From NCBI RefSeq assembly GCF_988243305.1, contig NZ_OZ547139.1: a DNA stretch of 64,000 bases, one strand, 5' to 3'. Each line of letters opens with the position of its first letter. The stretch's first letter is position 1. Made by a program: the position numbers. Source of the DNA: a plasmid. Below are positions 9,001 to 12,000 of this stretch, piece after piece.

Positions 9001-12000
9001 GATATTCATACTCCCCCCCCTTCAGGGTTGGCGGCCCGCGCCCTGCGGGCCGTTCTAACTCAAATACTCACTGCGGGTAATCATTCATATCCGGGAACGG
9101 CGGTTCATCATGATTTTCAGTGCCTCCCAGACCTTCAGCACTGGTGTTACGTGGCCCAGCTCCCGGCAGCATCTGCATTTCGCCGTTATTATCGATCACA
9201 ATTTCCTTGTTACTGCGCATTTTGCCGTCTGTCCCTTGCCATTTGTTATTACGAATGCGCCCGACAAAATACAGCATCATACCCTTTTTGAAGTACTTCC
9301 CAGCTGCTTCGGCCTTCTTTCCAAAAATGACAACATCATGCCATTCCGTTTCTTTTTGCTCCTTCCCTTCGTTGTCGCTGTAGCTGATTTCTGTAGCCAG
9401 CGTCAGGCTCGCAATGGCCGTTCCGTTTGGGGTGTAACGCACTTCTGCATCTTTGCCAGCACGCCCCATCAGAATCACTTTGTTTTCGCCACGTTTCCAC
9501 ATAATACACCTCATATATTTGATGTTTATCAGTAAAAAATGGGAGGATTAAGGGGGATTTCTCCCCCTCTTTATCAGTAAAACTTCACGTTCGATTTCAG
9601 GGCTTTTTCAAAGTCTTTTACAAAGGAATTTGCAAAAGTGTAATCACGATGAATAAGCTGTTTTGTTTTAGGATTTCGCCACTCAACCTGCACTGATTCG
9701 GCTGAGTATTCGATCACCTCGATTTGATTTTTTACACCGAGATAATCAGCAATTGCCATTACGGCATTCACTTTTTTTTGGTCTGCTTCTTTCATTTCAA
9801 CTCCTTCGCCAGTCGGGGCGCTACCGCGAAAGACTCAACTGCCTTTCGATGTAATAATTATACGTCTAATGAGCCACTTTATCAACTCATCAGACGTATT
9901 TTTTTATTTAATTTTGTTCAAATATGAACATTTATTGATGCTAAATATCTAACATAATGGCTTGAATTTGGCCTTGTTGTAGGTGATCCGGTAGTCTTTG
10001 CACTTCCCGTTCTGCCGCAGGAACTCCAGCGAGACAACGTTAGCAGCGGCAAAATTGATGCACATAATGCTTTCCAGCGCCTCGAACAGGTCGGCCCCAT
10101 TGGCAAGCGGAAACCACAGATCGTTGTCGCTACCGCTTAATTTTTCATGCAGACAGAAATGCACAGCACGCACGCCGCCAAATTCCGTAACCAGCACCGT
10201 ATTGCTGGCGCGAATATCAGTTAGTGTTAACATTTTTCCCCCTGTCAGTATTGGCCCCCTCGCGGGGGCCGCCGTTTCAGTCAATCGCGCGGTAAATCAA
10301 ACCGGCTTCGGCGTGCTGGTCGGCATATAATTTGAGTTTTTCCTGCTGGGTGATCAGCATGTCGCAGATGTGCTGATAGCCTTCTTCATGTGCGTGCCAG
10401 ATCATGCGGTTCAGGGTGAACAGGGTCAGCACGATACCGGTAGCTTCTGCGGACAATTCCCCTTCGAACCAGTTACCGCTAACCGATACCGTGAAGCGCT
10501 CTGCGCTCAGTGGGTACATGAAGCCGCTACCGCAAGACAGTTCGACGAACTCCCAGGAACCGCCTTGATAATCGGCGCAGAGAGAACGTGCGTGGTTGTA
10601 GACACCGGCCTCACCTGTGAGATACCAGGCGCCGAACAGGCGTGGCAGAAAGGCCATGCGGCGGTTATTGGGGATAATGCGTGCAGTGATGGCGGGTTGA
10701 TTCAGTTCAGTAGACATTTTCTGTACTCCTGCGCCAGTCGGGGCGCTACCGTCGAAAGACCGGATTGCCTTTCGATGTGATTATTATACGTCTAATGAGC
10801 CATACCAATCAAGCAAAATATTCCCGCCTACCTGAATATTTTCAGGCGGTAGAACTCTTTCCCCTGTCCATTTTTGGGGGCAGGATCACGCCTGCCCCCT
10901 TCTGATTCACATGATTACTATGACTTTGTTTCAGCGTTAAAGTGTACGGCTGCGATCCTGACCAACGGGATCACCGCGCTTTCCTCATCGAGCACACGAA
11001 AATTTATCGCTTCCCCCAGGTGCATCAGGTTAGCGATAAAATCAACGATGATTTCGGAAACCGGGTGTCCGTCGCAGTCCTGCTCATTCAGGCGCGCAAA
11101 CAGCGCCAGCGCCTTAGCGGCCTTGATTGCCCGCTCTTCGTTTTCTTCGTCCATACTGCCGAAACACCATTGCCCCTTTTCAATCAGGGCCAGCGTGTCG
11201 TAATAGGCTTCATTCTGGGACATGTTTTTTCCTCCTGCGCCAGTCGGGGCGCTACCGTGAAAGTTCGCTGCGTTACTGCATGAATTAGCCGTTAATCACC
11301 TTCGTGATGCACTCCAGCGCCTCAGACTCCTGCGGATAAAGTCGGCGTGCAGCTCCTTCACCAGACTGGATTTCTTCCAGCCGGATAAACTGCGCCGCCA
11401 GCGCCACGACTTTTTGCAGCGCCTCGGCATTGACCTCTATCTTTCGATCGCGGGCGGCATCTTCGCGCACCTGCTTTGCCAGGCTCCAGACGGTATCTTT
11501 TCCGACGCCATAACGGCTGTGTGAACTGCATTCCGCGATTTCTGCCAGAACGGCTTCGGCCTCATCGTCAGTGAGGTTCATATCACTGGTGCAGTCATGG
11601 ACATCTTCAGCAGTCCAGATCAGAAGGCTGATCCGCTGCTGTGGTTCAAAACTATCGAGAAGCCTTGCGCAAATTTCATTTACGTTACCGTGCATTGTAA
11701 AACTCCTGCGCCAGTCGGGGCGCTGCCGCGAAAGACCGGATGCCTTTCGATGTGATTATTATACGTCTAATGAGCCATATCAATCAAGCGATTTTTCACG
11801 CTCATAGCTGCTACAGGCAACGCTGTAGCAGTTTGCATCCAGTTCTGAAGGCCAGTCGTCACGCCCGCAACCTGACAGCAGGCAGGCGCTGAGGTGCCCA
11901 GGGCGATAGTCGAGATGCTGGCATGAGGCGCAAAGGTCATCATCTGAGATTGAGCGGCCTGCACAGATAGGCGGCGCGCCATCAGTGGGAATTTCTCGAA

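Follow-up and report, generated by a model that had tools for sequence, protein, structure and literature searches.

The window analysed in this work is a stretch of 64,000 nucleotides of plasmid DNA (NCBI RefSeq assembly GCF_988243305.1, contig NZ_OZ547139.1), in which two small genes lie side by side on the minus strand, at 11285-11695 and 10918-11223. The region 10700-12100 was 100% identical in DNA sequence to an 87-kb Salmonella IncL/M plasmid and at least 99% identical to dozens more plasmids. Overall, 1,293 plasmid records matched, mostly with 95-99% identity, and most of them were conjugative plasmids from Klebsiella, Enterobacter and Escherichia. The window thus belongs to an IncL/M plasmid and the gene pair is orf29-orf30 of the leading region of the pOXA-48/pCTX-M3 type. 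In the pOXA-48 nomenclature, Orf29 (DUF1380) and Orf30 (no domain) are followed by KlcA, Orf31, Orf32 and Ssb (supplement of PMC12365149). On the ssb side, the RefSeq annotation of the window gives the order traI - mobA(nikA) - ... - ssb - hypothetical - hypothetical - antirestriction - hypothetical (101 aa) - DUF1380 (136 aa), which continues beyond the DUF1380 gene with ... - Hha - DUF4942 - DGQHR - HTH - JAB - ... - parM. The pair is located directly upstream of the antirestriction gene (10277-10717, minus strand), which belongs to the ArdB/KlcA family (PF03230, E 2.9e-24) and is preceded by a full expression cassette of its own.

In order to place the two genes with respect to the origin of transfer, we searched the window for the published IncM nic sequence, ACATCTTG|T (PMC8125031). 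A match was found on the plus strand at 6979-6987, upstream of nikA/mobA, and a second one on the minus strand at 40661-40669; two or more matches also occurred in 8 of 100 shuffled sequences. Because of its position upstream of nikA, the match at 6979-6987 was taken as nic. Since this match is on the plus strand, it is this strand that is transferred, and the higher coordinates enter the recipient first. All the leading-region genes of the window are on the minus strand. The two genes, whose template is the transferred strand, are found at a distance of 3.9-4.7 kb from nic and are therefore leading-region genes, as the preliminary description of this DNA had assumed. Their position is also that of early genes in the F/IncI paradigm, just past nic and with the transferred strand as template.

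Both open reading frames had been delimited exactly in that description. The first gene, orf29, starts with ATG and codes for a protein of 136 residues with a pI of 4.64 and a net charge of -11. The second, orf30, also starts with ATG and codes for 101 residues, with a pI of 4.52 and a net charge of -10. These charges agree with the previous estimate by eye, which was -10 to -12 for the 101-aa protein. When compared with a 95%-identical K. aerogenes IncL/M variant, orf29 gave a dN/dS of 0.13, which indicates that purifying selection acts on this gene, and orf30 gave 0.49, a figure behind which there are only 14 substitutions. Together with the distant homologues found for each protein, these ratios indicate that orf29 and orf30 are real genes. 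Both were already known as hypothetical ORFs, as they are annotated in more than 1000 sequenced plasmids and named in a functional-genomics paper.

The regions preceding the two genes contain a repeated element. Its 22-nt core, CTCCTGCGCCAGTCGGGGCGCT in plus-strand spelling, is present in 10 copies in the window, between 9801 and 19330, where none would be expected by chance. Alignment of the copies revealed a full cassette made of a -35 box (TTGATT or TTGATA), a spacer of 17-18 nt and a TATAAT -10 box, followed by an untranslated region (UTR) of about 60 nt with two small hairpins and by an AGGAG Shine-Dalgarno (SD) sequence, with the start codon 5-8 nt further on. Upstream of orf29, a sigma-70-type promoter-like site, TTGATT-18-TATAAT, occupies 11758-11787 on the minus strand and shows 10 of 12 matches to the consensus. 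The same block is present upstream of six other leading-region genes and is kept in the K. aerogenes variant, and it presumably works as a promoter. The 5'UTR of orf29 (11696-11757, minus strand) comprises a hairpin CGAAAGGC...GUCUUUCG, a second hairpin GCGCC-CCGACU-GGCGC, the AGGAG sequence and 7 nt before the ATG. Its folding energy was unexceptional (z -0.84) and no covariation was seen in the cassette UTR hairpins. These hairpins are therefore best regarded as a candidate RNA structure.

The spacer between orf29 and orf30 (11224-11284, minus strand) measures 61 nt and contains no more of the cassette than its UTR/SD half, that is the second hairpin and the SD sequence, with the core at 11232-11253. 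Neither a promoter nor a terminator-like fold (z +0.9) was found in this spacer. The same half cassette also precedes a 78-aa ORF at 11780-12016 and the DUF4942 gene. On the 3' side of orf30, two strong hairpins (10876-10899 and 10824-10849) and a U-rich tail that follows the second one and extends to about 10813 occupy 10813-10899 on the minus strand. The 100 nt 3' of orf30 fold with a minimum free energy of -50.8 kcal/mol (z -5.19), and the next cassette begins directly after the hairpins. In the IncL/M variant, the hairpins are retained with base changes, and they likely end the transcription unit. The first of them is also listed in the plus-strand orientation. As one promoter-like site, no terminator in the spacer and hairpins after the second gene were found, a bicistronic unit is the natural reading, and orf29 and orf30 are probably co-transcribed. 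The aligned copies thus bear out the full cassette and the half cassette recognised in the preliminary description before the first and the second gene, respectively, and its proposal of a single transcription unit is supported.

Two other functions of the cassette were considered and discarded. That it might be the KorC operator was rejected because a separate RP4-like palindrome, TAGGACAAAATGTCCTA, is present in the promoter of the korC operon. The folds did not support an Frpo-like single-strand promoter either. When three cassettes were folded as single-stranded DNA (z -1.4 to -2.5), no Frpo/ssi-type hairpin rebuilding the -35 and -10 boxes was obtained, these boxes being largely unpaired in the centroid folds, and the intergenic space is only 84 nt. 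No Rfam family matched. As the IncL/M cassette shows no Frpo-like fold, there is no sign that these genes are expressed very early from the single strand that enters the recipient.

RefSeq names Orf29 a 'DUF1380 family protein'. Against the corresponding profile (PF07128), residues 1-104 of Orf29 scored 22.9 bits (E 9.6e-5), below the Pfam gathering score of 26, and no NCBIfam match was obtained. Direct comparisons pointed to the same family. Orf29 shares 35% identity over 113 residues with a Hafnia DUF1380 protein (E 8e-19) and, by tblastn, 29% identity at 100% coverage with YubJ of F and IncI plasmids; identities to its full-length relatives range from 23 to 35%. Furthermore, of the 13 proteins aligned, 11 match PF07128, the best one with an E-value of 2e-81. 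The homology of Orf29 to bona fide DUF1380 members extends over its full length, and on this basis we consider it a divergent DUF1380 protein and a relative of YubJ of F. The AlphaFold2 (AF2) model of Orf29 had a pLDDT of 77.

DUF1380 genes are present in one to three copies per F/I-type leading region, in two recurrent slots. In the first slot, which corresponds to the YubI-YubJ arrangement and was seen in four of seven F/I-type loci, the distance from an ArdB/KlcA-like gene to the DUF1380 gene that follows it is 19-67 bp. The second slot, found in all seven loci, lies 0-0.3 kb downstream of an orphan methylase gene, the DUF1380 gene coming either directly after a small ORF or alone. The pI of the family ranges from 4.3 to 5.2. 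No functional study of DUF1380 or yubJ was found in the literature searched.

For Orf30, neither Pfam nor NCBIfam contains a matching family. A profile search gathered about 70 homologous clusters, whose members are roughly 95-125 residues long, some having N-terminal extensions to about 165 residues, and originate from Klebsiella, Enterobacter, Kosakonia, Cronobacter, Franconibacter, Serratia, Edwardsiella, Salmonella and metagenomes. Some of the extended Salmonella members are named 'DUF957' by NCBI, a name for which Pfam gave no match even at E-values up to 10. An apparent relative of 1959 residues, the repeat protein P0024 (18 matched stretches in an exhaustive phmmer search), was rejected as a low-complexity artefact. 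Within the family, F42, D61 and H68 are invariant, conservation is almost complete at R31, A35, A36, L39, A43, L69, A91 and H94, and an acidic residue always occupies position 98 (E98). Cys70 is found in 42 of 55 members and is replaced by Gly in the IncL/M protein. Acidity is a consistent property of the family (median pI 4.31, median net charge -13), with very few basic residues. The AF2 model of Orf30 (pLDDT 83) comprises four helices, 3-15, 28-45, 55-72 and 84-100, and conservation is focused on a few polar and aromatic positions of helices 2-4 (D61/H68 and H94/E98). This pattern looks like a specific site and not like a diffuse charge surface.

Eight independent contexts of Orf30-family genes were examined. 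All of them belong to conjugative plasmids of the MOBF or MOBP type and are leading regions. In each of them, the gene lies between ParB/PsiB/PsiA and DUF932, TraM or a NikA-like relaxase, is co-oriented with these genes and points toward oriT. An ArdB/KlcA-like gene was present at 420 bp or less, in either order, in six of nine backbones; in the other three, it was 2.5 kb away (one backbone) or absent from 5-7 kb on each flank (two backbones). The Orf29 and Orf30 families are mutually unrelated (hhalign probability 0.2%) and, in the 17 loci examined, never occurred together outside IncL/M. An obligate two-protein system was consequently rejected, and the pairing of orf29 with orf30 is specific to this lineage.

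Published work provides some phenotypic and expression data. In a Tn-seq study of pOXA-48, orf29 and orf30 were non-essential and dispensable for maintenance and conjugation, and the changes after conjugation (log2FC 0.85 and 0.96, adjusted p 0.27 and 0.25, respectively) were not significant (PMC12365149). The matings appear to have been performed between isogenic K-12 strains, so that restriction would not have been challenged. In a plasmid-wide CRISPRi fitness screen, the two genes were not among the listed hits and, as far as can be told, neither study challenged the plasmid with restriction. In transconjugants of the IncI1 plasmid pESBL and of F, the operons showing strong early induction include those encoding homologues of KlcA and M.EcoGIX (PMC12672017). 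Among the loci examined here, those of the related IncI-gamma/K1 and IncF types have DUF1380 genes immediately downstream of the genes heading operons of this KlcA/M.EcoGIX type.

Taken together, these observations led us to propose, with a probability of about 0.45, that Orf29 and Orf30 have an accessory role in establishment or anti-defence, are expressed from a double-strand promoter and probably act by binding a protein, in the functional neighbourhood of ArdB/KlcA. Several sets of data suggest this reading: the pair lies in the leading region of an IncL/M plasmid and has the anatomy of an operon; the Orf30-family contexts are all leading regions, with ArdB/KlcA nearby in six of nine backbones; DUF1380 genes adjoin ArdB-like genes in four of seven loci and methylase genes in all seven; operons encoding KlcA and M.EcoGIX homologues are induced early in pESBL and F; and the acidity of Orf30 is conserved, its conservation is focused and orf29 is under purifying selection. 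According to the proposed scheme, one conventional double-strand sigma-70 cassette would probably drive a bicistronic orf29-orf30 mRNA in the new transconjugant, after synthesis of the complementary strand. Each cistron is preceded by the same translation-initiation module, consisting of a short hairpin and AGGAG, which recurs upstream of 10 or more leading-region genes, and the two hairpins 3' of orf30 would probably end the transcript. The proteins may then bind to a partner protein, either of the host or of the plasmid, by way of a defined site, built in Orf30 from R31, F42, D61, H68, H94 and E98, and their action would probably take place in the same functional neighbourhood as that of ArdB/KlcA, and not in the manner of ArdA- or Ocr-style decoys. 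The analysis itself shows that the genes are real and arranged like an operon, to which families they belong, that they are in the leading region and that the ArdB/KlcA neighbourhood recurs, whereas we infer the co-transcription, the timing of expression, the anti-defence role and the binding mechanism. Non-essentiality in Tn-seq, the lack of a significant change in conjugation, of obligate pairing and of an Frpo-like fold argue against the proposed role. In addition, the ArdB neighbourhood could simply reflect a small and crowded leading region and shared backbones.

The Tn-seq and CRISPRi results would also be accounted for if the two genes were dispensable cargo having no important role today and kept by linkage in a clonal, very successful backbone. 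The more than 1000 near-identical copies result from clonal spread and not from selection, and the orf30 dN/dS is only 0.49. However, the published screens posed no defence-system challenge, the dN/dS of orf29 is 0.13, and homologues with 25-45% identity keep their invariant residues and their genomic niche across MOBF and MOBP plasmids. We consider this explanation rather improbable.

In the preliminary description, the pair had been put forward as candidate DNA mimics on account of its acidity. If this were correct, one or both proteins would titrate type I restriction enzymes like ArdA or Ocr, and several features are compatible with such a function: both proteins are small and acidic, the acidity and the scarcity of basic residues are conserved across the Orf30 family, and the genes are found in the leading region beside an anti-restriction gene. 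DNA mimics have many different folds and none in common, and the all-helical fold of Orf30 would suit some of them (Ocr, Gam and DMP19). The two proteins are acidic indeed (18% D+E in each), but 'strongly acidic', as they had been called, was overstated. They are not outliers among their neighbours, since 4 of the 13 proteins of this stretch have a pI of 4.5-4.65 and a fifth one a pI of 4.87. The net charge per 100 residues amounts to -8.1 for Orf29 and -9.9 for Orf30. Four ArdA proteins encoded at related loci lie between -16.3 and -17.9, and the non-mimics YubI and PsiB at -6.4 and -5.6, respectively. The charge density of the pair is thus about half that of ArdA (about -17) and close to that of non-mimic neighbours. 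Ocr contains 29% D+E and carries a net charge of -28 over 117 residues (-24 per 100 residues). Ocr also tolerates the loss of many acidic residues.

The similarity searches gave no positive support to the mimic proposal. Neither protein matched PF07275 at E-values up to 0.1, so the earlier remark that neither resembles ArdA in sequence holds. Sequence searches of Pfam, NCBIfam and the PDB linked neither of them to ArdA, Ocr or ArdB, and the PF03230 profile, which recognises their neighbour, matched neither protein. Scans of Pfam, NCBIfam, PHROGs and PADLOC returned only the sub-threshold DUF1380 match and two PHROGs of unknown function. Sequence and profile matches in the PDB concerned designed helical proteins only and were rejected as compositional. 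No fold similarity to a solved DNA mimic (ArdA or Ocr) was found for either protein, the search of the PDB and of predicted viral structures with the Orf30 model yielded no informative fold match, and tblastn detected no homologue of either protein in phage genomes. Furthermore, the pI of DUF1380 proteins reaches 5.2, much of the Orf30 charge resides in inter-helix loops, as judged from the sequence and the AF2 helices, and the invariant D/H/H/E/F/R positions suggest a specific site. Mimicry of the classical ArdA/Ocr type is therefore unlikely.

The recurrent neighbourhood suggests another possibility, namely that Orf30-family proteins and DUF1380 proteins of the F/I YubJ type act as partners or modulators of the ArdB/KlcA protein encoded next to them. 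In several backbones, the genes adjoin closely, in either order, and the YubI-YubJ gap is 47 bp in both F and IncI-gamma loci. Nevertheless, an ArdB-like gene is missing within 5-7 kb of two Orf30-family loci and lies at 2.5 kb in one, and in IncL/M plasmids hairpins stand between orf30 and klcA, which is preceded by a promoter cassette of its own. Many ArdB/KlcA genes, for example klcA of RP4, have not been described with such neighbours. A partnership of this kind is doubtful.

It is just as doubtful that the proteins act outside defence, Orf30 as a small metal-binding helical-bundle protein or enzyme and Orf29 as a sigma-region-2-like modulator of transcription or of other plasmid housekeeping. 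Finally, we judge it very unlikely that Orf30-family proteins, with the F/IncI YubJ-type DUF1380 proteins, are the missing small acidic adaptors with which ArdB/KlcA disable type I restriction in cells, which would explain why ArdB/KlcA work in vivo and not with purified components, or that Orf30 founds a new helical anti-defence family with a host target of its own.

The establishment or anti-defence role proposed above concerns plasmids of clinical importance. IncL/M plasmids, of which pOXA-48 is the best known, rank among the main carriers of carbapenem resistance, and the leading region is the plasmid part most likely to decide the success of transfer against host defences. About 40% of the pOXA-48 genes, orf29 and orf30 included, are without function. 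If either protein were an anti-defence factor or an ArdB cofactor, this would help to explain the wide host spread of IncL/M plasmids as well as the mechanism of ArdB/KlcA. What the present analysis adds to previous knowledge is the definition of the Orf30 family and of its conserved residues, the ArdB/KlcA neighbourhood of both families, the anatomy of the operon and the finding that ArdA/Ocr-type mimicry is unlikely.

Compared with known systems, Orf29 and Orf30 resemble ArdA (PF07275) in being small, acidic and encoded in plasmid leading regions, and several of the loci with a DUF1380 or an Orf30-family gene contain ArdA as well. Ocr of phage T7 is all-helical, small and acidic; it differs from the pair by its far higher charge, and no sequence or fold match between them was found. 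ArdB/KlcA (PF03230), which is the neighbour here and in many homologous loci, is moderately acidic (pI 4.9-5.3) and unrelated to Orf29 and Orf30 in sequence. The DUF1380 proteins, YubJ of F and its IncF/IncI paralogues, are like Orf29 in their length (about 136-144 residues), their leading-region niche and their nearness to ArdB-like genes. However, genes of the YubJ type directly follow the ArdB-like gene, whereas orf29 precedes klcA with orf30 in between. Among the IncL/M plasmids themselves, Orf29 and Orf30 of pOXA-48 (IncL) and of the pCTX-M3/R471-type IncM plasmids are encoded by the same genes (99-100% DNA identity), and the order orf29-orf30-klcA-orf31-orf32-ssb is common to the window and to many of these plasmids.

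A cassette made up of a promoter, a 5'UTR and an SD sequence precedes at least ten leading-region genes on the minus strand (9801-19434), with its cores at 9801, 10726, 11232, 11703, 12025, 12989, 14037, 14292, 17774 and 19309. The -35/-10 part was present in seven of these copies, and the hairpin/SD half was found alone in the other three. The stretch lying between -35 and -10, ATGGCTCATTAGACG, is almost without variation among the copies, and this near-invariance suggests that the block may act as a common operator for a putative regulator. No description of the cassette was found in the literature searched.

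Upstream of orf29, a reading frame for 78 aa with a GTG start (11780-12016, minus strand; eight cysteines, pI 4.6) carries the UTR/SD half of the cassette only, and it shares bases at its 3' end with the -35 box of orf29's promoter. A family search with its product returned no match except a sub-threshold one to TrbK.

Downstream of orf30, the second hairpin (10824-10849) was compared with its counterpart in the IncL/M variant L021 (2870-2900). The bases differ on both arms (TACCGCC...GGTAGGCGG in the window, ACCCGCC...GGCAGGCGG in L021), although the pairing is mostly retained, which hints at selection on the structure.

Orf30-family members from Salmonella plasmids (locus L014, 7001-7495; locus L015; proteins P0074-P0079) possess an additional N-terminal segment of about 60 residues, and their genes start 15-47 bp downstream of an ArdB-like gene. 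NCBI names them 'DUF957 domain-containing'; the Pfam DUF957 match was not reproducible for these extended members.

A PF14072 DndB gene lies at 14890-16173 (minus strand) and also in loci L012, L014 and L016. Since such genes were found repeatedly in other leading regions carrying the Orf30 family, a conserved leading-region function is suggested for them. A further acidic protein of the leading region, with a DUF5983 C-terminal domain (8698-9009, minus strand; 103 aa, pI 4.55), also occurs in L016, L017, L018 and L020. It accompanies the Orf30 family in several backbones, where its gene usually stands immediately before those of DUF932 and the relaxase.

Separate from the repeated cassette, a palindrome, TAGGACAAAATGTCCTA (about 17045-17075, minus strand), is flanked by TTTACA and TATTAT-like boxes. 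An overlapping Rfam 'rimP leader' match is weak and sub-threshold (31 vs 47 bits) and probably incidental. The palindrome lies upstream of a JAB/RadC-like gene and an HTH gene, the latter corresponding to korC in pOXA-48, and it is similar to the KorC operator of RP4.
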